This document shows positions 11,924 to 31,935 of a stretch of 64,000 nt of DNA, piece after piece. Each line of letters starts with the position of its first letter. Position 1 is the stretch's first letter. Both the position numbers and the translations under genes were made by a program. The notes beneath the pieces were generated by a model that saw nothing but the letters and a program-made list of their open reading frames with translations, was not told the DNA's origin and ran no database searches. The stretch is taken from positions 22,320-86,319 of the forward strand of contig CAZDSF010000001.1 of assembly GCA_964508025.1 (NCBI GenBank), in the 5' to 3' direction. The DNA is from an uncultured Anaerolineales bacterium (GTDB lineage: Bacteria > Chloroflexota > Anaerolineae > B4-G1 > SLSP01).

Positions 11924-11957
11924 GAACACGGCGCCCTGGCGCCGTGTTCGTTGTTTT
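11924..11957 (+). terminator. Rho-independent-type terminator between convergent livM and tail-cluster genes
   Basis: gaacacggcgcc ctg gcgccgtgttc perfect 12-bp stem followed by gttgtttt. Confidence 0.65.
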
Positions 11958-11971
11958 GGAGTAGCGCTTTC

Positions 11972-15532: not shown

Positions 15533-15590
15533 GGCGGCCTCCTCATAAAGGATGAAGGTGCAAGGCGGAAGGATGAAGTCGTGCTACACC
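15533..15590 (-). promoter_or_regulatory. conserved ~50-nt leader motif upstream of distal-protein gene (copy 1)
   Basis: coding-strand TTCATCCTTCCGCCTTGCACCTTCATCCTTTATGAGGAGGCCGCCATG; ~80% identical to 21161-21212. Confidence 0.5.
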
Positions 15591-15613
15591 TTCGCGTTTC
15601 AACGCTTCAACTG

Positions 15614-15656
15614 GGGGATTGACGCCGCCGCGTCTGGCGTAGCAACGTCAATCCCC
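15614..15656. repeat. perfect 11-bp inverted repeat with 21-nt loop
   Basis: gggggattgacg ... cgtcaatcccc between the orphan gene and the distal-protein gene. Confidence 0.6.
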
Positions 15657-15676
15657 TTTCCATCGGCTAGATGCGG

Positions 15677-16740: not shown

Positions 16741-16800
16741 CAATCCCCCTCTCTCCCCATCTCCCCGTCTCCCCGTCTCCCTATCATCCCATCTCCCCAT
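16741..16800. repeat. CTCCCCATCTCCCC tract (G-runs on coding/minus strand), copy 1
   Basis: ctctccccatctccccgtctccccgtctccctatcatcccatctcccc in 160-nt intergenic gap. Confidence 0.6.
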
Positions 16801-19105: not shown

Positions 19106-19106
19106 T

Positions 19107-20693
19107 TCAGCTCGCCTCCTCTTCCAGGGCGATGTCGGCGGCATCCATGTCGAGGACGATCCACCACGGTTGCCCCTGGATCGCGGCGATGACGGTGAAG
19201 TCGCCGCTTTCGATGTCTGCATCGGCAGCGCGCTGCCCGGATGCGCCGACCACCAGACCCCGATCGGGGATGCGGCTGCCGGTCGGGGCCGGCGCCATCG
19301 CGGTCTCCGTCAGCCGTTGGGCGAGGGCGGCGCGCAGGGCTGCTTCATCGCCGGAGGGGGCGGCGCGCACGGCTGCGAGCACGGCATCTACCAGGGCCGT
19401 CGGCCCCGGCGCATCGAGGTCGGAGCGCCAGGTCATCACGTCGGCGAAGCGCACCGCTTTCACATCGGGCGTTTTCTTCAGTTCAGCGAGCAGCGCCTGC
19501 CCTTTGACCTCCTCACCGCTGCTCAGGTTGTCTATATAATCCTGTATGGCGGCGATGATGGCCTGTTGCACTTTGGACTTGCCGGCAGGGGGCAGCGCGC
19601 TCTTGAGTTGCACGCTCAGCCGGGGCTTGAAGAAGATGTAACGGGCGACGAGGGTGGTCTGTACGCCAGCAGCGCGCGTCTGCTCGATGGCGGCGCGCAG
19701 GCTGGGGAAACGCTCTGGTTCGCAGCCGACCAGCAGCGTGAGGCTGCCTGGCGGCGTCTGTTGCGCGGGGACGCTGTTGGGATCCCACACTTCGACCAGC
19801 TCGCAGCGCGCTTCGGCGATGACGCGGGCCAGGGCGGCAAGCGTGCCCTTGCCCAGGGCGCGCAGTGCGGCTTTGGCGCGCAGCCGCAGCTCGGCGTCGC
19901 TTTCATCCTCGGCGCCTAGGAACGTCGCCTCCAGGTTGGCGACGCGGCTGATACCGGCGATGGGTTGCACCAGTTGGTTGATGGCGCCGGCATCCACTTT
20001 GCCGGCAGCGCCTTTGAAAGCTTCAGCGGCGCGAATCGGCGCCTCTACGCGAACCTGGCCCCGTTGCAGCGTGCGCGGTTGGGTGGTCTGAAAGCGCACG
20101 TCTTTGGCGGTACGCACGGCGGTACCCTCGGCGATGATGAGGTTGCCTTCGACGGCGGGGTCCCGGAAGAAAGTGACCTGCCCGATGGCGTAGTCTTTCG
20201 TCTGCCGCGTCAGCCCCAGAATGGCGACGACCAAATCAAGGGATTTGCCCGCGGCCGTCTCCACAAAGCCCGCCAGGTAGGCCTGGTTGATCTGCTCGTA
20301 AACCACGGCGATCTCCCGCGCGATAGCCTCGCCGAGCGTGCGGGTGACGCTGCCGATGTTGATGTCGCTGAGCGGCGAGCGGCTGTCGCGCTGGAAATAA
20401 TCCACATAGAAAAGCGTCTCATCGTCGGGCCAGTTCCCGCCCACCTGCCACACCACGGCGTTGTCACCCTCGCTGAACAGGAAATCGCTGCCCTTCTGGA
20501 AGGTGTGCGGCGCTTTCTTGTGCACGCCGGTGATGCCGCGCACGTCGCGCGCCTGTTGGGCGAGCGGATAGAGATCCTGTTTGAGATCGAAGCGCAGGGG
20601 TTCGTTGACCACACCGCCGACGATGGCGGTGAGAATGTCATCCACGATGTCTTGATAGGGGCGATGGATCAGCGTTACAGTTTCCTCATTCAT
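19107..20693 (-). CDS. baseplate J-like protein (T4 gp6 / P2 gpJ homolog)
   Basis: 528 aa, N-terminus MNEETVTLIHRPYQDIVDDILTAIVGG typical of Baseplate_J family; start overlaps upstream stop (ATGA). Confidence 0.7.
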   Translation of the reverse strand: MNEETVTLIHRPYQDIVDDILTAIVGGVVNEPLRFDLKQDLYPLAQQARDVRGITGVHKKAPHTFQKGSDFLFSEGDNAVVWQVGGNWPDDETLFYVDYFQRDSRSPLSDINIGSVTRTLGEAIAREIAVVYEQINQAYLAGFVETAAGKSLDLVVAILGLTRQTKDYAIGQVTFFRDPAVEGNLIIAEGTAVRTAKDVRFQTTQPRTLQRGQVRVEAPIRAAEAFKGAAGKVDAGAINQLVQPIAGISRVANLEATFLGAEDESDAELRLRAKAALRALGKGTLAALARVIAEARCELVEVWDPNSVPAQQTPPGSLTLLVGCEPERFPSLRAAIEQTRAAGVQTTLVARYIFFKPRLSVQLKSALPPAGKSKVQQAIIAAIQDYIDNLSSGEEVKGQALLAELKKTPDVKAVRFADVMTWRSDLDAPGPTALVDAVLAAVRAAPSGDEAALRAALAQRLTETAMAPAPTGSRIPDRGLVVGASGQRAADADIESGDFTVIAAIQGQPWWIVLDMDAADIALEEEAS

Positions 20694-21160
20694 GGCGTTG
20701 CGCCTCCTTCCAGAAAGAAGGGAAAGACAAGGTTCAGCGGCTCGTCGCTGTCAATGGGCGTCAGGTGGATGTCAATATCTATGCAGGTGGGGTCGGTGCG
20801 ATTGGGGGTCACATTGACGGCGAGGACCTTTTTGACGCGGGGTTCCTGCGCCAGGGCTTGCAGGACGAAGAGTTTGGCGCGGTTGCGGTTGCGTTGGGTG
20901 TTGCGTTCGCCGATCAGTTCTGTGAGGCGGCAGCCGTAGGTGGGATGTCCCAGCGCGGCGAGTTCGCCCACGGGGGTGAGAAAGCGCAGCAGCAGGGCTT
21001 GCTTCAAGTTATCCGCGCCGCTGACGGTATCCAAATCCACCAGTCCAGCGCCAGAAGACGTGCGCGTGGCGAGATCGGCGCCCCGGTCGCGGCTCTTTTG
21101 CCGCGTCAGATCGCCCAGCAGGCGTAAATCGGTACCCCAACGTGCTTGTGTGTCGGCCAT
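20690..21160 (-). CDS. gp25/GPW-like baseplate wedge protein
   Basis: 156 aa; C-terminal ...VNVTPNRTDPTCIDIDIHLTPIDSDEPLNLVF matches gp25-like lysozyme-fold family; position after PAAR and before J. Confidence 0.65.
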   Translation of the reverse strand: MADTQARWGTDLRLLGDLTRQKSRDRGADLATRTSSGAGLVDLDTVSGADNLKQALLLRFLTPVGELAALGHPTYGCRLTELIGERNTQRNRNRAKLFVLQALAQEPRVKKVLAVNVTPNRTDPTCIDIDIHLTPIDSDEPLNLVFPFFLEGGATP

Positions 21161-21212
21161 GGCGGCTCCTGTAAAAATTATGAAGGATCAAGGCGGAAGG
21201 ATGAAAAAGACC
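21161..21212 (-). promoter_or_regulatory. conserved ~50-nt leader motif upstream of gp25-like gene (copy 2)
   Basis: coding-strand TTCATCCTTCCGCCTTGATCCTTCATAATTTTTACAGGAGCCGCCATG. Confidence 0.5.
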
Positions 21213-21300
21213 TTGCATCCCAGCGTTTGTGCGCTTCTACGCTTATAATTTTCATTATCTGGACTGTGCCAAATACCCCTTTGAAATTGGGAAATAGTGG

Positions 21301-21350
21301 ATGAGGTCTTTTCTCCCCATCTCCCCATCTCCCCCATCTCGCCATCCCTC
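21301..21350. repeat. CTCCCCATCTCCCC tract, copy 2 (G-runs on coding strand)
   Basis: tctccccatctccccatctcccccatctcgccatccctccc in 197-nt gap between PAAR and gp25-like genes. Confidence 0.6.
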
Positions 21351-21357
21351 CCGCTGC

Positions 21358-21690
21358 TCACGGCGGCCACTGGTCGGTGATGAAGGGCGCCGCCGGCGGG
21401 CCGAGGATCACGAGGATTCCTGGCGGGCTGGGAATGCGATCGCCCATCCGCACCAGGCCCTTCCCGGAGACGGTGACGCCCGCGCTTCCCAATGGGCCGA
21501 TCACCAGCAGGTAAGGAACGCCTGATACGGAATTGATCATCTGGCACAGGGAGCCGGTGGTCGCCAGCGGCATTCCGTTGGTCGTGATGAAGGGCGGAAA
21601 GATGGCGACCAGGATGCCCATATCCGGCGGCCCCGCTGCGCCGGGCGTCACCATCACTGTTGCTCCAATCGTGACCGGCATTCCTGGCAT
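21358..21690 (-). CDS. PAAR-domain spike-tip protein
   Basis: 110 aa Gly/Pro-rich with PAAR-type motifs (...GPPAAPF..., ...PSPPG...), immediately downstream of gpV-like spike. Confidence 0.7.
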   Translation of the reverse strand: MPGMPVTIGATVMVTPGAAGPPDMGILVAIFPPFITTNGMPLATTGSLCQMINSVSGVPYLLVIGPLGSAGVTVSGKGLVRMGDRIPSPPGILVILGPPAAPFITDQWPP

Positions 21691-21714
21691 GGCGCTCCTT
21701 TCATCCCGCTCCTT

Positions 21715-22521
21715 TTATCCCGGCGCGAACGAGGTCAGCCCCTTGATGCTGACATTGACGCCCTGGACGGCGACCGAAAGTCCGCCTTCGACTTTGGCGC
21801 CCAGGCTGCCTTTGACCGTGGTTTCCATGCCGCCTTCCAGCGTAGCGTTCATCTGCGCTTTGATGTTGATGTTCATGCCCTCTAGCGTGAGATCGCGGGT
21901 CGCCTTGAGCGTCATCGCGCCCGAAGCTTCGATCGTCACATCGCCGTCCTGGTTCATCGTGATTTTGGTGCTGCCGGCGACAACGGCCACGCGCCCGCCG
22001 CTGCCATCTGGTTGATCCAGCAACATCTCCGTTTGCCCGGCGGTAGCGCGGACTGCGCCATCGGTGATGCGCACGGTGATTTTAGGCGCCATCTCGATGA
22101 GGATTTCGCGGGGCGGGAAGGCGTCAGGGTGGTTGCGAATGGCGGCCTGGATGCTCTTGTCATCCGCTGCGGCGAGGGGCAGCCGGAAGATGACCTCATC
22201 GGGCCGGTTGAGCGGCGGACGATCCGCGTCGTTGTAGAGCCGCCCGATGATGAGCGGCTGGTTGACATCGCCGTGCTGGAAAGCCAGCAATACCAGGTCG
22301 CCGATGTTGGGGATGGCGGCTGTGCCGATGTGCCCCGTAGCGACCGGCGCGCGCTTGAGCAGCAGGTCGCTGGCCGGTAGACGCACATCGCAGGCGTAAT
22401 TGTCGTCATCGCTGGCGTCGCTGTGCGGGTAGAGGGCCTCGACGATGCCGAGTTCCGCGATCCGCAGGTTGCGCAGCTCGTGACGCACGATCTCTTGAAT
22501 AGCGCTGATAATGGTGGACAT
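21715..22521 (-). CDS. baseplate spike protein (phage gpV / gp5-like)
   Basis: 268 aa; N-terminal OB-like region then beta-helical repeats (..VKGSLGAKVEGGLSVAVQGVNVSIKG..). Confidence 0.7.
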   Translation of the reverse strand: MSTIISAIQEIVRHELRNLRIAELGIVEALYPHSDASDDDNYACDVRLPASDLLLKRAPVATGHIGTAAIPNIGDLVLLAFQHGDVNQPLIIGRLYNDADRPPLNRPDEVIFRLPLAAADDKSIQAAIRNHPDAFPPREILIEMAPKITVRITDGAVRATAGQTEMLLDQPDGSGGRVAVVAGSTKITMNQDGDVTIEASGAMTLKATRDLTLEGMNINIKAQMNATLEGGMETTVKGSLGAKVEGGLSVAVQGVNVSIKGLTSFAPG

Positions 22522-22570
22522 GGCTGGTTGCTCGTTACTCGTTACCCTTTGCTAATTGCGTTCACTCACC

Positions 22571-22612
22571 TATGACTCATGACTTTTTGACTTATGACTC
22601 CTGACTCATCGC
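22571..22612. repeat. TGACTCATGAC-unit repeat (family also at 56640-56700)
   Basis: tatgactcatgactttttgacttatgactcctgactcatc. Confidence 0.5.
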
Positions 22613-23593
22613 TTTCTCAAATCCAATCTCCGTGATGAAGCCGCCTGCTTTGGTGAGCCGGTGGGTGACGCTGCGCACCTGGTAGGCGGCGTTATGGGCG
22701 GCGGTAGGCAGGGCTTCGAGGCGGATGGCATCGCCCAATTGCACCTGCGGCGCGCCGGGAACGCGCATTTGCCCGCGCAGCGCGCGTCGCTGGAGCCGGC
22801 GCTGGAGGGCCTCGGCGGCGGTCTGTGCGGCTTCGACGGTGCGCAGGGCCGGGCGTTCCAACAAATGGCGAGGCGTTCCAGAACCGGCGCTGCCTTTCAA
22901 AGCGCCGAAGTCCTTGGCGAGCCAGGCCCAGGCGTCGCCGCTGCGTCCTGGCCCCTGACCCCAGGCTTCGACGCTGGCGGCAGCCGGCGGGCCTTCCCAG
23001 ATCCGCAGGGCGAGGATCTGCTCGCTGTAGGTGAAGGTGTGGACGGCGCGCCCATTTGCAAACTGTTTGAATACCAGCTCGCCTGCCGGGTTGGTGTAGA
23101 GATCGCAGCCGCAGAGCGCCGCCAGCTCGCGCAGATGGCTGTAGAAATTGCGTCGCCCGTCAATCACGTAGGCGGGAAACGCGATGCCCTCCTCGGCTTC
23201 GGCGACGGCGACGCCGGCCCGATCGGCCAGCGCGCGCACAATTTCGCCCGCGCGTTGGTTCTCGAAGGTCTCATTCGCGAAATGGCGCAGCAGCCGATAC
23301 GCCGGGCTGAGTCCCATGGCCCGCAAGGTGAGCAATCCCGGCTCCACCGCGACGAGCGCGCCGCTGAACACCTGCGTCAGCGCGTCGGCGCCGGCGTAGC
23401 CCAGGGCCACGGTGAGAGCATCCTCCAGCGCCGGGCGAAAGCGGCCCACCTGCCCCAGCTCCAGGGTGACGCTGTCGGCGGGGGTGTCCATAGCGCGCTG
23501 AACGACCAGCTCCACCACCGTGCTGGCTTGCGGTTCGGAAGCGGCGTCAATGACCCGTTGCTCGAATGTGATTCTGTAGGTGGGCGTCAGCAT
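22592..23593 (-). CDS. phage late control gene D-like baseplate hub protein (gpD/gp27-like)
   Basis: Start at internal Met (MLTPTYRITFEQ...) overlapping upstream stop; ~333 aa; typical gpD N-terminus and size. Confidence 0.7.
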   Translation of the reverse strand: MLTPTYRITFEQRVIDAASEPQASTVVELVVQRAMDTPADSVTLELGQVGRFRPALEDALTVALGYAGADALTQVFSGALVAVEPGLLTLRAMGLSPAYRLLRHFANETFENQRAGEIVRALADRAGVAVAEAEEGIAFPAYVIDGRRNFYSHLRELAALCGCDLYTNPAGELVFKQFANGRAVHTFTYSEQILALRIWEGPPAAASVEAWGQGPGRSGDAWAWLAKDFGALKGSAGSGTPRHLLERPALRTVEAAQTAAEALQRRLQRRALRGQMRVPGAPQVQLGDAIRLEALPTAAHNAAYQVRSVTHRLTKAGGFITEIGFEKAMSQES

Positions 23594-23598
23594 AGCCT

Positions 23599-25440
23599 TT
23601 ACGTGGACAACGCCTCCACGATGAGGTTGAACTCCGATTGCACCTCGGAAAGGCAACGGCAGACGCACGGCCCTTTGGCAGCGGTCGCTGGCTCGTCGGC
23701 AGCGCGGGCTACATAAGGGCCGAGGATCTCCAGCGTCCACACGCCTGCGCCCTTGGGTTTGTGCGTGTAGTCGAAGCGGCCCTCCGCATCCGTCTGACCG
23801 GGGATGGGGCGACCGCGCCCACTGCCGCTGGGGCGTTCGCCGTCCATCATTTCGCCATCGGGCGCGGTGAGGACGATGGCGGCGTTTCTGAGCGGCGTCC
23901 CATCCTCAAAGGTGATGCGCCCCTGCACGGCAACCGACCCCGGTTCGGCGGGCTGAATCAGCCAGCGCTCGCGGCTCGCAGCCTCGCGTGCGATGAAGCA
24001 GCAGCGCGCGCTCGTTTGTCCCGGCCCCAGGCACCATCCGCTGCCCGGCGGATCGCCGACCGGCAGATGGAAGGTGTCGGGTTGGGGAACGCGGCACGGC
24101 GGGGTATCGGCGCGCACGAACAGGAATTCCGTGCGCCGGTTGGCCCTCCAGGCATCTTGGGTGTTTCTAACCGGATCCTTTTCGCCGCAGCCCAGCCATT
24201 TGAGCGGCTCGCCGCCGCAGTTGGCAAAGAACTGGCTCTCTGGAATGGCGAGCGGTTCCTGATCGAGGTAGGCTTCGATGAGCGCGGCCCAGGTGAGGGG
24301 GCCGACGATGCCATCAGCGCTCAGCCCGTGATCCCCCTGAAAGGCGCGCACGGCGCGGTCGGTAGCGGCGTCGTGCGTTTCGTTGATCGGCCCCTGATAA
24401 TAGCCGAGATCCTGGAGGATGTGCTGATACTGGCGCACGCTCCAGGAATCCTTGATGCTGGGCGTCTCGCCGGCGGGACGGGTCTCGCGCAGGCGCAGCC
24501 ATTCGTTCAGCGCAGCGGCGCGGTCTCGCCCGTAGGTGAGACCGGCGTAGGCGCTGCGCCCGCGTCGCTCCGAGAGGGATTGGTTGTAGGCGTCAGACCC
24601 GACCAGATCGGTGTGCCCGACAATCAGCAGTTTTTCATTGGGGTGGGCGGCGGCGTAGTCGGCGACGAGCCGCAGCACGCGCCTCATGCACGGTTCGATG
24701 AAGGCTTTGTCGAACCAGAAGTGGACGACGAAGCTGTGGGCGATGCCCTCGGCGGGGCGCAGGATGATGGTGACTTCGGTGGTCTGGCCCCGGCGGACGA
24801 CGGCGGCTGCGGACCCCGTCATGGCTTCGGGCGATTCGACGGCGGCCTGCGCGGTGTAGCGGCCTGGCGGGAACTCCTCCTCAGTCCACGTGTTTTCGGT
24901 CCGCGCGGCGAGGGTGCGTTCGAGATCGGCGCCGTCTTCCTGCGTCCCATTGACGGTGACGAGCACCGTGCTGTAATCGAAGTCGGGACGGCCCTCGACG
25001 ATGACGTGGACGATGAGGCGCCCGGTCTCTGTTTCGATTCTCGGCGGGCGTTCTCGCGGCGGCTGTCTCTGACCCGGCGGTTCTAGCGGGGTGTATTCTC
25101 GCAGGGTGATGGCGTACTCAAAGCGTTCGGGTTTTCCCGCCAGCTCTCGCACGGCGAATTCCTCGATGAGGACCTGCCCCACGCGCGTGGTGGTGGTGAT
25201 GTCGGCGACGAAACTCACCGGCTCGGCGGCGCGGAATTTCTCGCGCAGCGTTTGCAGCGCGGCGCCGGCTTCCGGTCCGGTGAGCACGCCGGTGAGCGCG
25301 ATGCGGCTGGCGCGCCGTCCCAGGCCCTGGAGGAAATCGCCTTCCAGGGCCGGGATGGCGTGTTGCGTCCACACCTGATCGCCCTCCACTTCGAGCTGCT
25401 GCACTTGTTGCAGCTCGAAGTCATCCAGCATGGGTCTCAT
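23599..25440 (-). CDS. multidomain tail protein: N-terminal domain paralogous to 25908-26450, OmpA-like, peptidoglycan-binding and carboxypeptidase-regulatory-like domains
   Basis: 613 aa; N-term MRPMLDDFELQQVQ... (paralog of gene at 25908-26450); OmpA/MotB motif ...LLIVGHTDLVGSDAYNQSLSERRG...; PG_binding_1-like ...LGYYQGPINETHDAATDRAVRAFQGDHGLSADGIVGPLTWAALI...; CarbopepD_reg-like ...GRITFEDGTPLRNAAIVLTAPDGEM...TDAEGRFDY. Confidence 0.6.
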   Translation of the reverse strand: MRPMLDDFELQQVQQLEVEGDQVWTQHAIPALEGDFLQGLGRRASRIALTGVLTGPEAGAALQTLREKFRAAEPVSFVADITTTTRVGQVLIEEFAVRELAGKPERFEYAITLREYTPLEPPGQRQPPRERPPRIETETGRLIVHVIVEGRPDFDYSTVLVTVNGTQEDGADLERTLAARTENTWTEEEFPPGRYTAQAAVESPEAMTGSAAAVVRRGQTTEVTIILRPAEGIAHSFVVHFWFDKAFIEPCMRRVLRLVADYAAAHPNEKLLIVGHTDLVGSDAYNQSLSERRGRSAYAGLTYGRDRAAALNEWLRLRETRPAGETPSIKDSWSVRQYQHILQDLGYYQGPINETHDAATDRAVRAFQGDHGLSADGIVGPLTWAALIEAYLDQEPLAIPESQFFANCGGEPLKWLGCGEKDPVRNTQDAWRANRRTEFLFVRADTPPCRVPQPDTFHLPVGDPPGSGWCLGPGQTSARCCFIAREAASRERWLIQPAEPGSVAVQGRITFEDGTPLRNAAIVLTAPDGEMMDGERPSGSGRGRPIPGQTDAEGRFDYTHKPKGAGVWTLEILGPYVARAADEPATAAKGPCVCRCLSEVQSEFNLIVEALST

Positions 25441-25446
25441 GGTCGG

Positions 25447-25863
25447 TTATGACTTGAGCGTGTTCAGTTGGCCCACGATGTCGTCAATCAGGCTCAGAAT
25501 GTCGGCTTTGACGGTATCCAGCGACGGCAGCCCGGTGACGACATCCGCTGCGCCGAGCACTTCGTCAATCGTGGCGGCCTCGTCGGGGAGCAGGGCTTTG
25601 GCCGCTTCGAGGAAGGCTTTCACCTTTTGCGTGAACTGCGTCACCTCGGTTAGTCCGGGTACCGCGCCGACGTTGATGTTCTGAATTTCCGTCTTGAGTT
25701 TGTTCAGCAGGTCAATCAGTTTGTCAATCAGGGTGATGATCTGCGGCACCATCGCCGACAGCGCCTGTACTGCGGGCTTGATCGTGGGCACATTGGCGGT
25801 CAGGAAATCCTTGAATTCCTGAAGGACATCTTTCAATTGTTGGTAGACATTCGTTCCTGCCAT
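25447..25863 (-). CDS. small alpha-helical protein, lower GC than neighbours
   Basis: 138 aa from ATG 25863 (GAGGTGA RBS); K/I/L-rich, predicted coiled/helical; no match to known tail component. Confidence 0.4.
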   Translation of the reverse strand: MAGTNVYQQLKDVLQEFKDFLTANVPTIKPAVQALSAMVPQIITLIDKLIDLLNKLKTEIQNINVGAVPGLTEVTQFTQKVKAFLEAAKALLPDEAATIDEVLGAADVVTGLPSLDTVKADILSLIDDIVGQLNTLKS

Positions 25864-25907
25864 GGTTTCACCTCGGTTATAAGTCAAAAGCAAGTCTCCC
25901 CATCTCC

Positions 25908-26450
25908 CTACTGCCCCAATCCTTGACGGATGGCCTGGAGTTGCGGCAGAATGGCGCTGAGCGCGGCGACGAAGCGTTCCAGCCCCGTCGCAAAGGTGGT
26001 GAGCGCCTCCAGCCCGTTGACGAGATTGTCCATGAGCGCCGCGGCGTCGCCGAGGATGTCCGCGTCGAGCAGGGAGGGATCCTCCGGCTCGACCGGCTCG
26101 ATGTATTCGCGCAGGGTGCAGACGTAGGCATACCGCTCCGGTTTGCCGGCGAGCTCCTGCCAGCGCAGGTCATCAATGACCAGTTGCTCCAGTCCGGCAT
26201 CGGCGACGATGTCGGCGATGAAGCTGACCGGTTTTCCGGCGCGAAACTTTTGCTCCAATGCTTCGACGAACGCGAGCGCCTCAGTCCCGGCAGCGACGCC
26301 CCACAGGCTGAGGCGCGCGGGGCGGCGTCCCAGGTTTTGAAGTACGCTGCCATCTTTACCCGGCGGTTTGTGCTCGGCGAGCACCCGCCGTTCGAGCAGG
26401 CTGATTTCCTGTACCTGCGGCAGTTCGAGATCGTCTAACATGGGCCGCAT
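25908..26450 (-). CDS. tail protein paralogous to N-terminal domain of the 613-aa OmpA/PGB protein (tube-initiator-like candidate)
   Basis: MRPMLDDLELPQVQEI...GKPERYAYVCTLREY aligns over ~130 aa with MRPMLDDFELQQVQQL...GKPERFEYAITLREY. Confidence 0.5.
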   Translation of the reverse strand: MRPMLDDLELPQVQEISLLERRVLAEHKPPGKDGSVLQNLGRRPARLSLWGVAAGTEALAFVEALEQKFRAGKPVSFIADIVADAGLEQLVIDDLRWQELAGKPERYAYVCTLREYIEPVEPEDPSLLDADILGDAAALMDNLVNGLEALTTFATGLERFVAALSAILPQLQAIRQGLGQ

Positions 26451-26460
26451 GGGTAAATCC

Positions 26461-27729
26461 TCACACGTCTATGCCGTGGCGGCGGGCTTCCTCTTCGAGG
26501 ATGCGCCGAATTTTTTCAGCCAGCGCTCCCAGGTCTTCCGGCTCGGTGAGCGCGTTTTCTTGCCGGGCGCCTTGCAGCATGGTGATCGCGCCAGCGGGAA
26601 AGGCGAGCGCTTCCCGCTGTTGTGCGGGTGCGAGCGGCGGCAACGAAGGCGGCGCGGGCGCGAGCGGCTGCAGCGCAGTCGGCGTCGGCATGGTTTTGGG
26701 GATGGCGACCGTTTCGAGCCAGCGCGATGACGGCGCGGAGCCTGCACCCATTTGCGGCGGCGCGCTTGCCGGCGCCTTTGCGGCGGTGATTTCCGCTTCG
26801 ATAGGAATCTCGCTTCCCCGGCCAGCGGGCGGCGATGCCATGACGCCGCTGTCTGACGAAGGGGCGATCTCGCGTTCTGCCAGCTGCCAGAGCAGCGCTT
26901 CGGAAATGCCGTCGTCCAGGAAGGGCAGCGCCCACGGCGCGAGATGCCTTTCCGGCGGCGTGAGATTTGCTATGGGGGGCGGGGCGGCTGCGCCGCTTGG
27001 AATGGCTCCCTGGGCGTGCAGGGCGCGCTTCAGACGTTGTTCGAGCGCGGCAAGCCAGGCGCGCTGCGCTGTGTTGGGCGGGGGCGGCGGCGGCATGATG
27101 ACGTCGCCAGGGCGCGGCGACGCGCGCGAAGGCAGTTCTGGCAGGGAGTGTGCAGCCGCTCCGGCGAGCCGTTGCAGCAGCGGCGTCAGCGTCTCGGCGG
27201 GGATGTGGGTGGGCGGCAGCGATGGCAGCCGGGGAGCGGCTGCTGCTCCGCGTTCCGTCCCCGGCGAAGGGCGAGTATCTTTGACATCAGCGGGACGGAA
27301 GGTGGGCGGCGCGCTTCTCTGCCGCGCCCACGCAGCCGCCCACGCTCGCCGCATTGCTGAGGGAGGCGGCTGCTGCCTTTCTGGCGCGCGCGCGGCTGGT
27401 TGCGGTTGCAACGCTGGCAGCAGGTCGCCGGGTTGTTGGCGCGGCGTTTTCGGCGCGAGATCGAGGCGGCGCGGGGACGGCGCCGCGGGCGAGGCTTCCG
27501 TCTGGCGCGCCGCCATCGCGGTGAGCGGGCCGATCTGCGCGCCTTCGAGCGGCCCTTTCCGCAAGGCGAAGGGCGGCGTTAGAAGCGCGGCGAAACTGCT
27601 TTCGGCATTTCGCAGCGGCGCCCAGCGCGACACGCGCCGGGTAAGTTGACGCTGCCAGTGTCTCGGCGCGCGCCCACCGGCCAGCGCGCCGCGGCCTGCA
27701 CTACGCCAGTTGCGCCATCGTGCTCTCAT
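26461..27729 (-). CDS. proline/alanine-rich low-complexity protein in tape-measure position
   Basis: 422 aa, >25% Pro+Ala, predicted disordered except C-terminal ~40 aa helix; located between chaperone-like gene and tube-initiator-like genes; start overlaps upstream stop. Confidence 0.35.
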   Translation of the reverse strand: MRARWRNWRSAGRGALAGGRAPRHWQRQLTRRVSRWAPLRNAESSFAALLTPPFALRKGPLEGAQIGPLTAMAARQTEASPAAPSPRRLDLAPKTPRQQPGDLLPALQPQPAARAPERQQPPPSAMRRAWAAAWARQRSAPPTFRPADVKDTRPSPGTERGAAAAPRLPSLPPTHIPAETLTPLLQRLAGAAAHSLPELPSRASPRPGDVIMPPPPPPNTAQRAWLAALEQRLKRALHAQGAIPSGAAAPPPIANLTPPERHLAPWALPFLDDGISEALLWQLAEREIAPSSDSGVMASPPAGRGSEIPIEAEITAAKAPASAPPQMGAGSAPSSRWLETVAIPKTMPTPTALQPLAPAPPSLPPLAPAQQREALAFPAGAITMLQGARQENALTEPEDLGALAEKIRRILEEEARRHGIDV

Positions 27730-28196
27730 GCGCCATCCTCGTTGCGGCGGCTCATCTCCAGATACAGCAGGATTTGCCCGATGGTCATGCCGCTGACTTG
27801 TTCGGGCGTCCAGCCGAATTCGCGCGCCAGCACGAAGCAGGCCCGCGCGAGCGGCGTTTGCACCAGTTCTTCCAACTCGTCGCGGGGGGTGCTGATGCCG
27901 CTGATCGCATTGATGCGTTCGACGAGGAATTGCGCCACGCCCGCCGGCAACTGCGCGACCTGTTCGGCCTGCAATTTCGGCTCGACGAGGGCTTGCTGGA
28001 TCATCAATGCGGCGGAGAGGTTGTCATCGTCGCGCGCAGCTTTGCCGATGCGCTGAATATCGCGCACGGTGAGCGGGCGCAGCACCACCCGCCGATCTTC
28101 CATCTCGCGGCCAGCGGCGCGCAGCAACGCGGCAGGGATCTCCACCTCATGGGTGAGCGCCCCACCTGCCAGTAATTCTTCGGCGGTGAGTGTCAT
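27726..28196 (-). CDS. tail assembly chaperone-like protein
   Basis: 156 aa, AGGAGG RBS; position immediately after tube gene and before ruler candidate as in P2 (E) / Mu; helical. Confidence 0.4.
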   Translation of the reverse strand: MTLTAEELLAGGALTHEVEIPAALLRAAGREMEDRRVVLRPLTVRDIQRIGKAARDDDNLSAALMIQQALVEPKLQAEQVAQLPAGVAQFLVERINAISGISTPRDELEELVQTPLARACFVLAREFGWTPEQVSGMTIGQILLYLEMSRRNEDGA

Positions 28197-28212
28197 GGGG
28201 GGGCCTCCTGGT

Positions 28213-28770
28213 TCAGGCGTTAGCGGATTCGCTGAATTCGGGCGCCTTAGCGGTTGGCTCGCCGCCGTTGGCTGCGCTCCGATCTAGCACGCGGATGGTC
28301 AACGCCTTGAAGGTGAGGTTCTCCATGACGAAATCGTCTTCGGGCAGCGAGAAACCCCAATCCTGGAATTTGACGCCCTTGAGCTCCAACGCCACGGTGT
28401 TGCCGGGCGCGGCGGGATCGTTGAGGCTCACGCTCATGTTGAAGGTGGGCTGCACGTAGGGTTCGGCGATGTTGCTGGGCGATGATCCGCGCCCCTGGAG
28501 CAGGAACAGCAGCGCGCCGTTGATATAGGCCCGTCCCACCTTGCCGCTGATGTGAATGTTGCCTGGATGCAGCGAGGTGGCGTGGCGGCGTCCGATCTCG
28601 TGAAATTCTTCCAGATCGGTATGCACGTAGAGTTCGACGTTGGTGACACGCCCCACCGTGAGCAGGTCGTAGGTATCGAGCACGGCTTTGGCGTCGTTCC
28701 CTTCCGGGGTGTCCTCAATCGCCAGGGTCAACGTGCCATTGGCACCGGTATAGATATTGGTCAACGCCAT
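28213..28770 (-). CDS. contractile tail tube protein (T4 gp19 / Hcp-like fold)
   Basis: 185 aa from ATG 28770 (GAGGAGGGG RBS); directly follows sheath with 12-nt gap; size and beta-rich composition typical of tube proteins. Confidence 0.7.
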   Translation of the reverse strand: MALTNIYTGANGTLTLAIEDTPEGNDAKAVLDTYDLLTVGRVTNVELYVHTDLEEFHEIGRRHATSLHPGNIHISGKVGRAYINGALLFLLQGRGSSPSNIAEPYVQPTFNMSVSLNDPAAPGNTVALELKGVKFQDWGFSLPEDDFVMENLTFKALTIRVLDRSAANGGEPTAKAPEFSESANA

Positions 28771-28781
28771 GGTTCCCCTCC

Positions 28782-30446
28782 TCACTCCAGGAACATTGTC
28801 ACTTTGATGTAGTCAATGCTGAACACGGGCCGCAGGACGAGCGTGACGCGCGCGATGCCCTTGATCTCTTCTTCGCGGGTGGCGCTCACGTTGAGTTCGT
28901 AGCCCACCAGCATCTCGTCTTCCACCATCTCGGCCAGGAAGCTGTTGATGGTGGCGCGCATCGCGCTGCGCACCCGCTCGTTGTTGAGCAGGCCGATGTA
29001 CGGATTGGCGGCGGAACGCACGCCGTAGCGGGCGTAATCCACGATGCGCCGTGTGGTGATCTGTTGCCAGGCGGTGTTGGTCGCGGTGGTGATGCCCTTG
29101 ACGACGCGGAATCCCTGCCGCATTTCGAGCGCCAGGACACGCGCCTGCACCAGCTGGCTCAGCTCGGCGGCGGAGAAGCGCCGTTCCAGCCCTCCGACGC
29201 GCACGGGCTTGTTGGTGAGGCTGATGTGCGGGGCCAGCCCGCCCAGCAAACCGGCGACGGCGGCTGCGGCGTAAGCGCCCGGCAAGGTCAATTCTTTGCC
29301 GCTGGCGCTATCGGTGGCGAGGATGCCCGGCGCGACGAAGATCAGCCGATCGCTGGCGAGGGTGTGTCCGCGCAGATCGTCGCTGCTAGCGCCGAGCTTG
29401 CTGCCCACAACCGCGATGCGCTCGTGGCGGATGGCGTCGGTGGAGGCGTTCTGGCAATGGGCGTCCAGCTTCGCGCCGAAGCGGTCATCCTGCCCGGCGG
29501 CCACGAGGATGTGCGCATCCTCGTAGAGCAGCGCTTCCAATCCCGCCTCGTATTCGGCAGCAGAGGCGGCTTCGCCGTTGGCCCCGCCTTTGAAGGCTGC
29601 GAAAGCATCCGCTGCCAGGCTTCTGAGGGGCAGCTCGGCGGCGTGGGCGGCGGCGGTCGCCGTGACCCAGGCCGATTGCGCGGCGATGTCGGCGATCAGG
29701 TCGGCGCCGCTGACGACGATGTAGCTCTCCTTTGCCTCGCCCAGTTTGAGGGTGACTTTGCGAGCGCTGGCCTTATCCACCACGTAACTCGCGGTGATTT
29801 TGTCGGCGGCAGCGATGGCGTCGCCGAAGGTGAGGGCGCCGGTAGCGCGGTTGATTTTCACCTCGCCGGTTGCGGGCGGGGCGGCATCGTCATCGTAGAG
29901 CAGCTTGAGCGAGCGGGTGAGGCCATCGGCGTCGGTGGCGAGGTGAATGCGGTTGCGGGCGCTTTTGACCACGGGGGTGTATTTGAGGGTGATCGGCGGC
30001 GCTGCATTGCCGAGATGCGCTTCATTTTCGATGAAGGCGTTGTCGTCGGCGTCCCAAACATTGACGAGCAGGGCGTTGCCCCAGTTGCCCTCCGTCTTCG
30101 CTTGAAGGGTGACGCAATCGCCGGTGGTGGATTTGAGCGTGGTCGTGGCTTTGGCGGCGCTGGCAGCCGCCACGCGCACCGCGAAGACGGTGGTGGCGCC
30201 GTGTCCGTAAGCCAGTTCCAGGGCGCGGACGAGGGTGAGCTCGTTGCTGAAGCCGTTGATCCAGGCGTCGGTCTCGCCGAAGATGGCGCGCGCTTCGGAG
30301 AGGCTGCCCAGCGTGACGGGCTTGTTGAGCGGCCCTTTGCTCGCCGTGCCTATGACGCCGAGGTTGCCTACTGTGACCCGCCCCGGCACGATCAGTCCCT
30401 CGGCGCGTACTTCGATATAGACTCCAGGTAAAATCATCTCAGCCAT
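28782..30446 (-). CDS. contractile tail sheath protein
   Basis: ATG 30446 after AAAGGAGG; N-term MAEMILPGVYIEV and C-term ...VTLVLRPVFSIDYIKVTMFLE are hallmark sheath-family termini; 554 aa. Confidence 0.85.
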   Translation of the reverse strand: MAEMILPGVYIEVRAEGLIVPGRVTVGNLGVIGTASKGPLNKPVTLGSLSEARAIFGETDAWINGFSNELTLVRALELAYGHGATTVFAVRVAAASAAKATTTLKSTTGDCVTLQAKTEGNWGNALLVNVWDADDNAFIENEAHLGNAAPPITLKYTPVVKSARNRIHLATDADGLTRSLKLLYDDDAAPPATGEVKINRATGALTFGDAIAAADKITASYVVDKASARKVTLKLGEAKESYIVVSGADLIADIAAQSAWVTATAAAHAAELPLRSLAADAFAAFKGGANGEAASAAEYEAGLEALLYEDAHILVAAGQDDRFGAKLDAHCQNASTDAIRHERIAVVGSKLGASSDDLRGHTLASDRLIFVAPGILATDSASGKELTLPGAYAAAAVAGLLGGLAPHISLTNKPVRVGGLERRFSAAELSQLVQARVLALEMRQGFRVVKGITTATNTAWQQITTRRIVDYARYGVRSAANPYIGLLNNERVRSAMRATINSFLAEMVEDEMLVGYELNVSATREEEIKGIARVTLVLRPVFSIDYIKVTMFLE

Positions 30447-30474
30447 TAGTGGTCCTCCTTTCATGGCTTGAATT

Positions 30475-30526
30475 GGCGAAAAAAGCGAATGGCGAATGGC
30501 GAAAAGTGAATGGCGAATTGTGAATG
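30475..30526. repeat. heptanucleotide tandem repeat (GCGAATG-like x7) upstream of sheath gene
   Basis: gcgaaaaaa gcgaatg gcgaatg gcgaaaa gtgaatg gcgaatt gtgaatg; ends 20 nt before sheath RBS. Confidence 0.7.
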
Positions 30527-30536
30527 TTGTCCTTCC

Positions 30537-31589
30537 TCAACGGCGGGATGCCTGGATGTAGACGACGGCTATTGCATCGAGCCGGTCGCCCTGGATGGCG
30601 AGTTCCAGGCGCTCGGTTGGGCCATCCAGCTGAATTGGGGCCGCGAAATGCCGGGTATAGGGGGTGTAGGGATCGGGGATGGCGTTTTCATCCCAATCTC
30701 CCAGGGTGAGGGCGGCAGGCCCGGCGGTGAAAAGCGCGAGAAAATCGGTGAAGGTGGGCAGGGTCGCTTGGGCGTGGCGCGTTGTCGGTTCGGGGCCGGA
30801 GATGGCGGCGAGAAAGGCGTCGAAGGTGGGGAAGTTCAGCGGCGCGCCTGCGGCGCCATCGAAGGTGCGGGTGAGAACAACGGCGGAGGTGGGCGTTGCG
30901 GCGGGAATGAAGGCGAGCGCCCACAGTCCGTGGATCGTGCGCTGTCCGCGCAGGGTGAGCGGGGGCGCGGTCTCGTTGTCCCAGCGGACCAGGTCGGCGG
31001 TGACGAGCAGCCGTTCGTTGTGGGCGCTGTTCACCGCCACGGGGATCTGCGTGATGAGGCTGCGCGCGTCGTCGGCGTCCGCGTACTGGAATTCGTAGAG
31101 CAGGCGGTAGTCGGCGGTCTTGCGCCAGGCGTTCACCGGCGGCAGATGTTCCGGCAGCGAGCTTTCCGTCAGCGCGAAGCGCAACACGCCAGCGGCCCAC
31201 AGCGCGTCGCGGTCTGCTAGCAGGCGCGCGTGAAGCGCATCGGCGGCTGCATCTACGGCGGCGACATCGGCGCCCCACAGTTGGAAACGCGCGCGCACGT
31301 CGAGGCGACCGCCCTTGAGGCTTGCAGGCGCGGGGGTGTCGCGCAGGGCATCGCCCCGGAAATTACCGATTCCCACGGGGCGTTCTTCGATGGCTGCGAG
31401 GGAGACGCCTGGCGGCGGCAACCCGGCGGTCGGTGGGGACAGGTAGCTGCGCAGCAGGGCCAGCAACGCGGCGCTGGCTTGATCGGGGCTGGCGGCGTCG
31501 CCGGCGGCGAAAGCCTGAATCAGACTCGCTGCTTCCAATACCGGTTCTGCTTCAGGTGTGCGGCGGCGGAAAAATGAAAAGAGCGACAC
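30537..31589 (-). CDS. hypothetical first gene of tail cluster (possible tail terminator/cap)
   Basis: 350 aa, GTG start at 31589 per ORF track; no confidently recognisable domain; position upstream of sheath. Confidence 0.35.
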   Translation of the reverse strand: MSLFSFFRRRTPEAEPVLEAASLIQAFAAGDAASPDQASAALLALLRSYLSPPTAGLPPPGVSLAAIEERPVGIGNFRGDALRDTPAPASLKGGRLDVRARFQLWGADVAAVDAAADALHARLLADRDALWAAGVLRFALTESSLPEHLPPVNAWRKTADYRLLYEFQYADADDARSLITQIPVAVNSAHNERLLVTADLVRWDNETAPPLTLRGQRTIHGLWALAFIPAATPTSAVVLTRTFDGAAGAPLNFPTFDAFLAAISGPEPTTRHAQATLPTFTDFLALFTAGPAALTLGDWDENAIPDPYTPYTRHFAAPIQLDGPTERLELAIQGDRLDAIAVVYIQASRR

Positions 31590-31888
31590 GTTCGTTGTTC
31601 CTTGTGTGAATGCGTCCTGCGGCTAGAGGAGAACGCGGCTGGAGTCTGGATACAGGAACAAGCGATTGTAGCCAACAGGGTGACAGCGCAATCGAAACTA
31701 TAATTTCAGTCTAACATAAATTGGTAAAGATAGAGTCAAGAATGGGTTAAAACGATCCTGAAACATGACACAATTCTTAATGCTCCGGGGTTGTGTCACA
31801 GGTTGCGTGGTTTTCGGTGGTAATAGCAGATTGCTCAGGTTTTTTTATGATTAGGATGCTGGAATTTTTCCGAAAATCACAATTACTG

Positions 31889-31896
31889 CTATAATA
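31889..31896 (+). promoter_or_regulatory. extended -10 (TGcTATAAT) candidate promoter for hybrid HK operon
   Basis: ttactgctataat ~40 nt upstream of ATG 31936 within 346-bp AT-rich divergent intergenic region. Confidence 0.4.
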
Positions 31897-31935
31897 GGGC
31901 TGTATTGTTATGTTTGTGATGGTTTATGGAGGTTT

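Follow-up and report, generated by a model that had tools for sequence, protein, structure and literature searches.

A probable tube initiator with a predicted peptidoglycan-binding cassette in a capsid-less contractile tail cluster of Chloroflexota

A 613-aa protein encoded in the 64-kb stretch of DNA analysed here (the window) combines an N-terminal domain, modelled as a phage-tail tube initiator, with a long C-terminal cassette of predicted peptidoglycan-binding folds. On balance, we lean towards the view that the protein is an 'evolved tube initiator', which would tether the tube tip, together with its payload, to the peptidoglycan of a target. It would be a core component of the baseplate, and its gene belongs to a cluster best explained as a contractile, phage-tail-like injection system that is encoded on the chromosome, without a capsid, by a Chloroflexota bacterium resembling the Anaerolineae.

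Results

A conserved cluster of contractile tail genes

All genes described here lie on the minus strand. The cluster is headed by a conserved protein of ~320–350 aa (30537–31589), which shows 36–46% identity in synteny and has no family matches. It is followed by the contractile sheath (28782–30464; phrog_279, 8e-55; Phage_sheath_1C, 1.9e-13) and by a putative tube protein (28213–28785; synteny 48–72%), assigned from its size and its position after the sheath gene, and lacking a Pfam or NCBIfam match. Next come a tail assembly chaperone-like protein (27726–28196; synteny 62–81%), with a sub-threshold match to Phage_TAC_7, and a 422-aa Pro/Ala-rich ORF at the tape-measure position (26461–27729). 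The latter has no family matches, and its conservation across loci is limited to the last 30–80 residues.

Downstream of the 613-aa gene, the baseplate hub of the gpD/Mu gp44 class (22592–23593) matched PHROG tail/baseplate-hub (2.2e-11) and VgrG_rel (1.9e-10); its length of 333 aa is that of the gene call on identical metagenome contigs. The central spike, of gpV type (21715–22521), and the sheath initiator gp25/gpW (20690–21160) exceeded the Pfam cutoffs for Phage_base_V (29.0 bits, cutoff 23.8) and GPW_gp25 (28.1 bits, cutoff 27.2) respectively. Between them lies a conserved 110-aa protein (21358–21690; synteny 63–77%) without a family match, placed at the usual PAAR position by location and size only. 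Baseplate wedge protein J (19107–20693; Pfam Baseplate_J, 1e-17; phrog_6, 1.6e-39) is followed by an 812-aa wedge partner at the gpI/gp7 position (16784–19222), identified by synteny and a weak baseplate PHROG match. The sheath and J proteins are only distant relatives of those of any solved system.

The order sheath–tube–chaperone–(tape measure)–paralogue–small helical protein–613-aa gene–hub–spike–gp25–J was identical in 15 loci spanning Rhizobiales, Cyanobacteria, Acidobacteriota, Actinomycetota, Gemmatimonadota, Chloroflexia and others. Each recognisable gene has a phage-tail counterpart, and PG_binding_1, one of the domains of the 613-aa protein, is common in endolysins. A decaying prophage tail module, whose initiator happens to bear endolysin-type wall-binding domains and which has no autonomous function, would explain these features. 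We nevertheless regard this as highly improbable. The gene order is retained across at least 10 phyla at 45–80% protein identity, and the genes of the cluster are closely spaced, without terminator-like sites on the minus strand. Furthermore, no capsid, portal, terminase or integrase gene was found within the 64-kb window, and searches of 50,697 phage genomes and of IMG/VR revealed no relatives.

Assignment to established classes was also considered. A functional tailed prophage was rejected, as no head, portal or terminase gene was linked to the tail genes, either in the window or in the flanks of loci L001 and L002. An Afp/PVC-type eCIS was rejected because its class markers were missing: an Afp15-type ATPase (AAA+), a DUF4255 cap and a gp19-type tube found no match in any cluster ORF in Pfam, NCBIfam or PHROG. 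A type VI secretion system (T6SS) was rejected in the absence from the cluster of TssJ/L/M, ClpV and any clear transmembrane segment. The order sheath–tube–chaperone–(tape measure)–U-like–…–D-like hub is P2/pyocin-like, as in R-type tailocins, but no lysis or release gene (holin/endolysin) was recognised in or beside the cluster.

Two paralogous genes for probable tube initiators precede the hub gene

The 613-aa protein (23599–25440) is separated by one gene from a 180-aa protein (25908–26450), and both ORFs were confirmed at these positions. The first-pass annotation had proposed that their N-domains are paralogous. BLASTP bore this out, aligning the two with 61/122 identities (50%; E 3e-35), far beyond chance, over the first ~120 residues of the 613-aa protein. 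The two families are maintained as separate genes at every related locus, and N-domain identity is 62% among members of the 613-aa family, 79% among those of the 180-aa family and 45% from one family to the other. The 180-aa protein is an old paralogue of the ring domain of the 613-aa protein. Full-length homologues of the latter number more than 200, with 50–65% identity and the same Pfam architecture.

AlphaFold2 predicted the 613-aa protein with a pLDDT of 86.9 and a pTM of 0.70. In these models, which are of monomers and are of moderate confidence for the N-domains (pLDDT 45–85), residues 1–117 (25090–25440) adopt the tube-like fold of solved tube initiators: P2 gpU, Mu gp43, pyocin R2 PA0626 and Pvc7/Afp7. 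The tube-like, beta-barrel-forming character of the shared N-domain, on which the earlier reading depended, is upheld at the level of predicted structure. The 180-aa protein combines this domain with a long C-terminal helix (residues 130–179). Pfam scores for the window 613-aa protein fell short of the cutoffs for DNA_circ_N (PF07157; 19.6 bits, cutoff 21) and GpU (PF06995; 19.1 bits, cutoff 27.5), while orthologues exceeded that for DNA_circ_N (24.8, 22.7, 22.1 and 22.8 bits; best E 4.3e-6). The 180-aa paralogue gave only a weak match to DUF6046. The 613-aa gene lies downstream of the chaperone gene and of the gene at the tape-measure position, and upstream of the hub gene, a location consistent with the gpU/DNA_circ_N/Afp7 class.

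The hub gene starts 5 nt past the stop codon of the 613-aa gene, so that the earlier description of the protein as hub-adjacent is accurate for the genes; physical adjacency of the protein to the hub seems likely. The ORF between the paralogues (148 aa, 25447–25893) is probably 138 aa in length (25447–25863), as it is called on identical contigs. It is helical, is conserved in synteny and has only weak coiled-coil and tape-measure-like matches; we infer that it acts as an adaptor or glue.

A conserved cassette follows a proline-rich spacer

The N-domain is followed by a proline-rich spacer (residues 118–139; 25024–25089; pLDDT <50), which the first-pass annotation had missed. Across 54 homologues, this spacer has a median length of 23 residues and is 50% proline, although its sequence is not conserved; in the window protein it comprises ~22 residues and is likewise 50% proline.

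The cassette (residues 140–613) begins with a first beta-sandwich (residues 140–229; 24754–25023; AlphaFold2 strands, pLDDT ~90), also previously overlooked. It continues with the first part of an OmpA-like domain, containing the GHTD…SERR motif (residues 230–305; 24526–24753), recognised by Pfam and by matches to structures in the PDB. A helical PG_binding_1 domain follows (residues 306–400; 24241–24525; AlphaFold2 helices 307–393), and then the last strands of the OmpA-like domain, with the motif WRANRRTEF (residues 401–445; 24106–24240; AlphaFold2 strands 406–408 and 436–442). The protein ends with a connector and a second, Cys-containing beta-sandwich (residues 446–613; 23599–24105 including the stop codon; AlphaFold2 strands 492–610), in which Cys470 and Cys594 are conserved.

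The OmpA and PG_binding_1 domains proposed earlier were both significant in Pfam: OmpA (PF00691) matched residues 241–299 (E 1.6e-7, 32.0 bits, cutoff 27.2) and PG_binding_1 (PF01471) residues 335–387 (E 1e-16, 61.3 bits, cutoff 23). The third proposed domain, CarboxypepD_reg (PF13620), was below threshold (18.9 bits, cutoff 32.3; E 0.002), as it was in the best homologue (27.7 bits), but a beta-sandwich is indeed predicted with confidence at residues 492–610. In a Longimicrobium orthologue, CarboxypepD_reg matched at the position of the first beta-sandwich (E 1.5e-4).

The first-pass annotation had also failed to detect that PG_binding_1 is nested inside the OmpA fold, with the last strands and their NRRTEF motif at residues 406–442. 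In the AlphaFold2 model the fold is complete, with a beta-alpha-beta-alpha core and terminal strands, split by an insertion of ~100 residues. In agreement with this, Foldseek aligned OmpA domains of 108–123 aa across ~210 query columns. The family profile matched solved OmpA-like domains at 5.5e-14, and the OmpA/MotB-type motif quoted earlier, GHTDLVGSDAYNQSLSERR, aligned nearly residue-for-residue with OprF and Pal. Asp278 and Arg293, invariant in 55 homologues, correspond to the diaminopimelate-binding pair D271/R286 of Acinetobacter baumannii OmpA (PMC5974059), with the same 15-residue spacing in GHTD…LSERR. R432, R435 and R436 are also invariant among homologues. The OmpA halves are conserved at 65–71% identity, the last strands (401–445; 71%) being the most conserved segment, and the ring domain at 66%; the cassette is conserved to the same degree as the ring domain. 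Profile matches and models together identify the cassette as a canonical OmpA-like, predicted peptidoglycan-binding domain with a nested PG_binding_1 domain, between two beta-sandwiches.

The C-terminus is polymorphic in relatives

Relatives formed 473 representative clusters, in which the N-domain was always at residues 1–135; most of the top ones were 1200–2040 aa in length. Among 31 long relatives tested, OmpA was found in all 31 and PG_binding_1 in 28. Enzyme domains in this set comprised PAD (three proteins; E 1.5e-100), PETase-like (three), GH5, PLD and Metallophos (one each). The C-terminal enzymes of relatives, as predicted from these domains, are thus variable, including protein-arginine deiminase, phospholipase D, PETase-like hydrolase and GH5 glycosidase. 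Among shorter homologues, the additions are PA14, SH3_3 or a further OmpA/PG_binding_1 module. By blastp (1e-30 to 1e-114), the fused extensions have homologues encoded by independent genes that occupy the slot between the 613-aa family gene and the hub gene. For the majority of these modules, fused or separate, no family is recognisable, and some could therefore be fibres or adhesins rather than toxins. The 613-aa protein of the window has no payload and no payload gene after it: this copy is the unarmed minimal form.

The LysM domain at the equivalent place in solved baseplates is a glue without a demonstrated ligand, and the cassette could likewise be structural glue, a bulkier substitute for LysM or a helix-rich module that fills the space between hub and wedge and never meets peptidoglycan. 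The LysM domains of P2 gpX, Mu gp43 and the eCIS initiators are indeed described as glue or as wedge-stabilising, and the cassette has a constant length across homologues and is predicted as one rigid unit (pTM 0.70). We consider a purely structural role unlikely. The ligand-binding Asp/Arg pair and the whole GHTD…SERR and NRRTE motifs are invariant across phyla, and the disordered spacer sets the cassette apart from the ring. Moreover, the appended wall- or carbohydrate-binding modules and enzymes, together with the spacer, are more in keeping with an arm that is exposed than with a filler that is buried.

No export route is apparent in the cluster

The 613-aa protein has no signal peptide and no hydrophobic segment (maximum 19-residue Kyte–Doolittle mean 1.12). 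Similarly, no signal peptide or clear transmembrane helix was found among the 16 cluster proteins, the highest 19-residue mean being a borderline 1.63 in a 1186-aa ORF. Membrane-complex genes (TssJ/L/M-like) and ClpV-like genes were sought in Pfam, NCBIfam and PHROG and were not found in the cluster. In the wall-anchored contractile machines of the T6SS, by comparison, the OmpA domain of TagL or evolved TssL is periplasmic, behind transmembrane helices (PMC13584744). In the 613-aa protein, no export signal was found that would place the OmpA domain in the periplasm or otherwise outside the cytoplasmic membrane of the producer.

These data bear on the conclusion of the first-pass annotation, which had correctly identified the OmpA and PG_binding_1 domains and the paralogy. 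It proposed a baseplate pre-anchored to the producer's own wall, forming a fixed, T6SS-like apparatus that fires outward. Wall anchoring is a typical function of OmpA-like and PG_binding_1 domains, which the T6SS uses in this way, and no release genes were recognised. Anchoring to the producer wall is nevertheless very unlikely. As neither a signal peptide nor a clear transmembrane segment is present, synthesis leaves the cassette across the membrane from the wall to which it would have to be pre-anchored. In addition, it is carried not by a static part but by one that should leave with the tube tip, as the P2 tube initiator does (P2 preprint). The same architecture occurs in Actinomycetota and in Gram-negative phyla such as Pseudomonadota, Acidobacteriota and Cyanobacteria, and the arm bears enzymes in relatives. 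Since the arm of these relatives ends in enzymes, which suggest that it acts on a target and is not a static anchor, the cassette is more likely to engage the target wall than to fix the machine to the producing cell. The cluster encodes nothing that could export the cassette, so that the producer's own wall should not be its ligand while the cell is intact.

Another reading is a cytoplasmic system, like the Streptomyces CIS, whose particles stay inside the producer; under stress they would fire from within through its membrane, the tip cassette would engage its own peptidoglycan, and controlled death or lysis would result. In Streptomyces, cytoplasmic CIS are reported to bring about cell death (PMC10020575, PMC12237407). 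The cluster lacks signal peptides, a membrane complex and a lysis cassette, and on this reading a particle in the cytoplasm could reach no peptidoglycan other than that of the producer, beyond the membrane. We judge such self-directed firing to be improbable, however, as the cluster showed no membrane adaptor of the CisA type, and the payload repertoire (PLD, PAD, esterases, GH5) and the variable pre-hub slot are hallmarks of conflict between organisms rather than of self-lysis.

Discussion

We return to the evolved tube initiator acting on a target wall. The two paralogues may link the trimeric hub with the tube, either through one mixed 3+3 ring, like that formed by gp38/gp39 of phage Pa193, or through a stack of two rings like that of Afp5/Afp7. 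Thanks to the spacer, the cassette could lie outside the ring, at the place taken by the LysM 'glue' module in other systems. On firing, the initiator would depart with the tube tip; the cassette would reach the wall layer of the target, bind peptidoglycan and hold the tip there, and in armed relatives the attached payload would be held at the target wall together with the tip. The mechanism requires that six (or three) arms of 480 residues fit in or below the baseplate and pass through the opening wedge ring.

A bolder proposal, which we advance only tentatively, is that this represents an undescribed mode of arming. In the initiator, a proline-rich tether would connect the ring to a peptidoglycan 'harpoon' common to all members (OmpA and the PG_binding_1 domain nested in it), beyond which the enzymes could be exchanged, and firing would fix the tip in the target wall and place there up to six copies of the payload. 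If this is true, LysM has been swapped for two unrelated peptidoglycan-binding folds with intact binding residues, and selection at this position of contractile tails generally would be for wall binding itself, beyond space-filling. No report of effector fusions to a tube initiator was found in the literature searched.

Several features distinguish the 613-aa protein from known initiators. With P2 gpU (whose LysM glue is gpX), the pyocin R2 'ripcord' PA0626 (with PA0627) and Mu gp43, it shares only sub-threshold sequence similarity. Two paralogous initiators are present here, compared with one in those systems; LysM is replaced by a cassette of ~470 residues with unrelated wall-binding folds and a proline-rich spacer; and the C-terminus is polymorphic and often enzymatic, with no surrounding phage. 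The first-pass annotation's statement that an initiator carries at most a small LysM was nonetheless too strong: Mu gp43 (446 aa), a hexameric initiator whose C-terminal domain contains LysM, and Milano gp25 (394 aa) bear larger C-terminal domains. The Pa193 proteins ('ripcord-1/-2') are small (171–188 residues) and without a wall-binding cassette, and the mixed ring is putative in our case. In Afp5/Afp7 (Pvc5/Pvc7, Cis5/Cis7), one paralogue is of the tube class and one of the initiator class, whereas both are initiator-class here, and the wall-binding part is LysM rather than OmpA/PG_binding_1.

Other tails and secretion systems offer partial parallels. Some non-contractile tails carry modules as insertions within the Dit galectin domain, not as additions behind a spacer; these modules bind wall polysaccharides, not peptidoglycan through OmpA/PG_binding_1, and include no enzymatic payloads. 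In the T6SS, 'evolved' (specialised) VgrG, PAAR and Hcp carry variable C-terminal toxin domains on expelled tip or tube components. In both cases, an expelled structural part bears variable domains that also occur as separate neighbouring genes, but here the carrier is the tube initiator, and a constant, predicted peptidoglycan-binding cassette lies between carrier and payload. TagL and evolved TssL likewise associate an OmpA/Pal/MotB-family domain (PF00691) with a contractile machine. They are, however, inner-membrane proteins of a static membrane complex (PMC13584744), while the 613-aa protein is soluble, lacks export signals and would belong to the expelled core.

At the core of their baseplates, contractile tails, tailocins and eCIS nearly always retain a LysM fold, which continues to be regarded as a structural element. 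Here, in a widespread and unstudied lineage, OmpA-like and PG_binding_1 domains of canonical type stand in place of LysM, and their ligand-binding residues are invariant across phyla, so that pocket mutants offer a direct test of peptidoglycan binding by a baseplate core. Through this cluster, a contractile system can be recognised in Chloroflexota, Cyanobacteria, Acidobacteriota, Actinomycetota and others; as it is without the Afp-type ATPase, cap and tube markers, surveys keyed to those markers may overlook such systems. The tube initiator would join VgrG, PAAR and Hcp as an effector-bearing part, and the 613-aa family would offer a defined fusion point for engineering payloads onto tail-like particles.

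Architecture of the 613-aa protein

Three ORFs follow one another in tight succession on the minus strand of 23599–26450, encoding a 180-aa protein (25908–26450), a helical 148-aa protein (25447–25893) and a 613-aa protein (23599–25440). Over their N-terminal 122 residues the 613-aa and 180-aa proteins share 50% identity (BLASTP E 3e-35), bearing out the N-domain paralogy proposed in the first-pass annotation. The 613-aa protein also scored above the Pfam cutoffs for PG_binding_1 (residues 335–387; E 1e-16, 61.3 bits against a cutoff of 23) and for OmpA (residues 241–299; 32.0 bits against 27.2), and a profile of 55 homologues matched solved structures of OmpA-like domains (5.5e-14) and others that contain PG_binding_1 (about 1e-5 to 1e-7). 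Given the paralogy and the passing OmpA and PG_binding_1 scores, the original observation is therefore real, and the assignment of peptidoglycan-binding domains to this protein is supported. Phage_P2_GpU and DNA_circ_N fell under their Pfam cutoffs in the same protein.

An AlphaFold2 model built from the 55-homologue alignment was confident (mean pLDDT 86.9, pTM 0.70). It predicts a mixed alpha/beta N-domain with a long hairpin of low confidence (residues 1–117), a disordered segment (118–139), a first beta-sandwich (140–229), an OmpA-type beta-alpha-beta-alpha unit (233–302, with closing strands at 406–442) and, inside that unit, four helices that make up the PG_binding_1 domain (307–393). 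The nesting was confirmed with Foldseek, in which OmpA domains of 108–123 residues (OprF, Pal) span about 210 query columns. Comparison of the full model with the PDB gave usable local matches alone; whole-chain matches to pilins and adhesins were rejected as meaningless alignments (TM about 0.12). For the CarboxypepD_reg domain claimed for the C-terminus, a second beta-sandwich is predicted at residues 492–610, and the family label is not established, scoring 18.9 bits at residues 505–571 against a cutoff of 32.3.

The segment at 118–139 is a spacer with a median length of 23 residues and 50% proline across homologues, which have kept its character and not its sequence. Beyond it, the OmpA motif GHTDLVGSDAYNQSLSERR is near-identical to the OprF and Pal versions. 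D278 and R293 match in position and spacing D271 and R286 of Acinetobacter baumannii OmpA, the diaminopimelate-binding pair (PMC5974059), and are invariant in the 55 homologues, as are G275, N286, R292, R295, R432, R435 and R436. The two OmpA halves are the best-conserved parts (65% and 71% identity to the window copy), and the N-domain is level with them at 66%. A proline-rich tether carries the C-terminal arm, a wall-binding cassette that is both conserved and canonical.

Seven cysteines (251, 408, 418, 449, 470, 481 and 594) are conserved in 43–54 of the 55 homologues, and occur in a protein without an export signal. It is possible that they form disulfides after release, or metal sites.

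The N-domain is of the tube-initiator class

The structure matches listed (figures in brackets) were diffocin CD1367 (9.9), the Pam3 tube initiator gp17 (9.7), the phiCD508 LysM protein (9.7), Pa193 ripcord-1 (9.3) and ripcord-2 (8.1), XM1 gp11 (9.1), the pyocin R2 ripcord PA0626 (9.1), Mu gp43 (9.0), and the PVC (8.4) and Streptomyces CIS (8.3) initiators. The 180-aa family was recognised by fold comparison only, its profile giving no match to PDB sequences even at E 10. Among the viral structures of BFVD the N-domain alone was matched, in proteins of 130–260 aa annotated as LysM, Dit-like, DUF6046 or DNA circularisation proteins. The assignment of the N-domain to the tube initiators is supported, and the 613-aa protein belongs to that class of baseplate core proteins.

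Gene content and distribution of the cluster

The cluster lies on the minus strand and runs from 31589 down to 11972. It opens with a conserved protein of about 320–350 aa (30537–31589), followed by the sheath (phrog_279, 8e-55), a putative tube protein and a chaperone-like protein. A Pro/Ala-rich ORF of 422 aa (26461–27729) occupies the tape-measure position; it has no family match and is conserved between loci solely in its last 30–80 residues. The 180-aa paralogue, the 148-aa helical protein, which has weak tape-measure-like PHROG matches, the 613-aa protein and the hub come next. After the hub are a gpV-type spike, a 110-aa protein at the PAAR position, gp25/gpW, Baseplate_J, an 812-aa wedge partner and finally two ORFs of 315 and 1186 aa. 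Similarity of the sheath and J proteins to any solved system is remote. The first protein of the cluster, present in every locus at 36–46% identity, had no match in Pfam, NCBIfam or PHROG, and elimination alone makes it a candidate for the tail terminator or cap.

The mechanical ORF of the hub (22592–23740, minus strand) has a GTG start, encodes 382 aa and shares 142 nt with the 613-aa gene. On identical metagenome contigs the hub gene is called as 333 aa from MLTPTYRI (23593), which leaves a gap of 5 nt after the 613-aa gene. No terminator-like sites were found on the minus strand in 21000–32000. Neither a capsid, portal, terminase, integrase or lysis gene nor an AAA+ ATPase, DUF4255 cap, gp19-type tube or T6SS membrane complex was found with the cluster. 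On either side lie ordinary chromosomal genes, coding for histidine kinases, an ABC transporter and a 2-oxoacid:ferredoxin oxidoreductase; every named relative of this oxidoreductase comes from Anaerolineae or Anaerolineales.

Other loci have a giant baseplate protein of about 1600 aa. The 812-aa ORF (16784–19222, minus) and a segment of about 190 residues in the 1186-aa ORF (11972–15532, minus) align to the same part of it; in the window the wedge partner seems to be shorter and to be accompanied by separate distal proteins of 315 and 1186 aa. Immediately upstream of the cluster, the plus strand encodes a hybrid response-regulator/histidine kinase (31936–33096) and a small Ras/Arf-like GTPase (33153–33779), which could be its regulators. 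An 1153-aa STAND-type regulator with BTAD, NACHT/NB-ARC and TPR parts (59289–62750, plus) and an 1164-aa histidine kinase with four GAF domains (41318–44812, minus) appear unrelated.

Gene order was the same in all 15 loci compared by tblastn with the full set of 16 window proteins. Full-length homologues number more than 200 for the 613-aa protein, at 50–65% identity and with unchanged architecture, and more than 1000 for the 180-aa protein, at 65–70%. Full-length copies of the former occur in Cyanobacteria, Chloroflexota (including Chloroflexia), Acidobacteriota, Gammaproteobacteria, Chromatiales, Rhizobiales, Desulfuromonadales, Vulcanimicrobiota, Thermoanaerobaculia, Longimicrobium, and Blastococcus and other Actinomycetota. 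Cultured carriers include Oscillatoria sp. CS-180 and Phormidesmis priestleyi ULC007. A genome scan was run with OmpA-motif patterns and for that reason returned mostly unrelated OmpA proteins, with true full-length relatives in just 13 of 80 loci. Against 50,697 phage genomes (tblastn), matches of the 613-aa protein were confined to endolysins, in generic PG_binding_1 and OmpA segments, and the paralogue matched nothing. The paralogue profile found no relative in IMG/VR, a search with two short peptide patterns that distant relatives may escape. Literature searches found no published description of the family or cluster type.

The end of the arm is a payload site in relatives

In the window the slot between the 613-aa gene and the hub gene (23593–23599) is empty. 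In other genomes 1.9–7.4 kb of variable genes separate the two, for example in the related loci L009 (11857–18827), L010 (11833–19210), L012 (11863–16142), L001 (12306–13769) and L002 (12657–13817). These genes encode DUF6345, tyrosinase, small HEAT-repeat proteins and large repeat-containing ORFs of 900–1260 aa without family matches; Pfam searches of the free-standing slot genes gave nothing beyond the HEAT-repeat proteins and DUF6345. In some genomes the 613-aa homologue itself reaches 1300–2100 aa, with a C-terminal extension homologous to free-standing slot genes (blastp 1e-30 to 1e-114).

When 1.84 billion representatives were scanned in full with the N-domain (HMMER), 473 clusters were recovered, 82 of them with E below 1e-30. 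The top representatives were mostly 1200–2040 aa long, and the N-domain was invariably at the extreme N-terminus. Among 31 such long proteins, OmpA was present in every one and PG_binding_1 in 28. Beyond this core they carried protein-arginine deiminase (n = 3; E 1.5e-100), PETase-like hydrolase (n = 3), GH5 cellulase, phospholipase D and metallophosphoesterase (one each), and TIG domains. Shorter relatives had extra PA14, SH3_3, HEAT repeats or a second OmpA/PG_binding_1 module. The end of the arm is a payload site in these relatives. None of the slot or extension modules is present in the window, whose 613-aa protein is the minimal, unarmed form.

One locus, from a Longimicrobium MAG (L015), has tandem long copies of 1658 and 2089 aa (4427–9403 and 9992–16261). 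Both have the complete N-domain/OmpA/PG_binding_1 core and their C-terminal ends differ, with HEATH and HELGH motifs and a PETase-like hydrolase with a GHSRG motif. Small HEAT-repeat proteins of 167–192 aa lie directly before the hub gene, past the variable large genes, at L009:18328–18831 and L018:11203–11781 (HEAT_2 E 2e-21 and 9e-10), and could be immunity or adaptor proteins.

Role of the wall-binding cassette

The first-pass annotation had the baseplate anchored to the producer's own wall and firing outward. This reading is weak and is not supported. The N-terminus of the 613-aa protein (MRPMLDDFEL...) is not a signal peptide, its maximum 19-residue hydropathy mean is 1.12, and none of the proteins in the cluster shows a convincing transmembrane segment. 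T6SS wall anchors reach the periplasm via transmembrane helices (three in TagL) within a static membrane complex (PMC13584744), whereas this cassette would be cytoplasmic as long as the producer is intact, and its place is on the mobile core. Actinomycetota share the architecture with Gram-negative phyla, and in relatives the arm bears enzymes characteristic of conflict systems. Export of the cassette without a signal peptide was considered, and no support for it was found in the cluster.

We lean, by a little, towards a mechanism in which the cassette acts on the target. The two paralogues would form a hub-to-tube adaptor, either as a mixed 3+3 ring, like gp38/gp39 of phage Pa193 (PMC11456595), or as two stacked rings, like Afp5/Afp7. 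The tether would put the cassette outside the ring, where other systems carry LysM or helix-rich 'glue'. Post-contraction attachment in P2 runs via the tube–tube initiator complex (P2 preprint); if the initiator departs with the tube tip, as in P2, the cassette would thus get to the wall layer of the target, where it would bind peptidoglycan and retain the tip and any fused enzymes. Because of the LysM precedent, a purely structural role keeps some weight, though we consider it unlikely. More improbable still is a cytoplasmic system of the Streptomyces type, firing through the membrane of the producer, after which the tip would meet the producer's own wall.

The proposed arrangement resembles the evolved Dit of siphophages, hub-adjacent ring proteins bearing wall-binding modules, and the evolved VgrG/PAAR/Hcp effectors of T6SS. 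What is new is the replacement of LysM by an OmpA/PG_binding_1 cassette in a tube initiator. The system around it is widespread, capsid-less, contractile and apparently undescribed, and its initiator is a polymorphic effector carrier.
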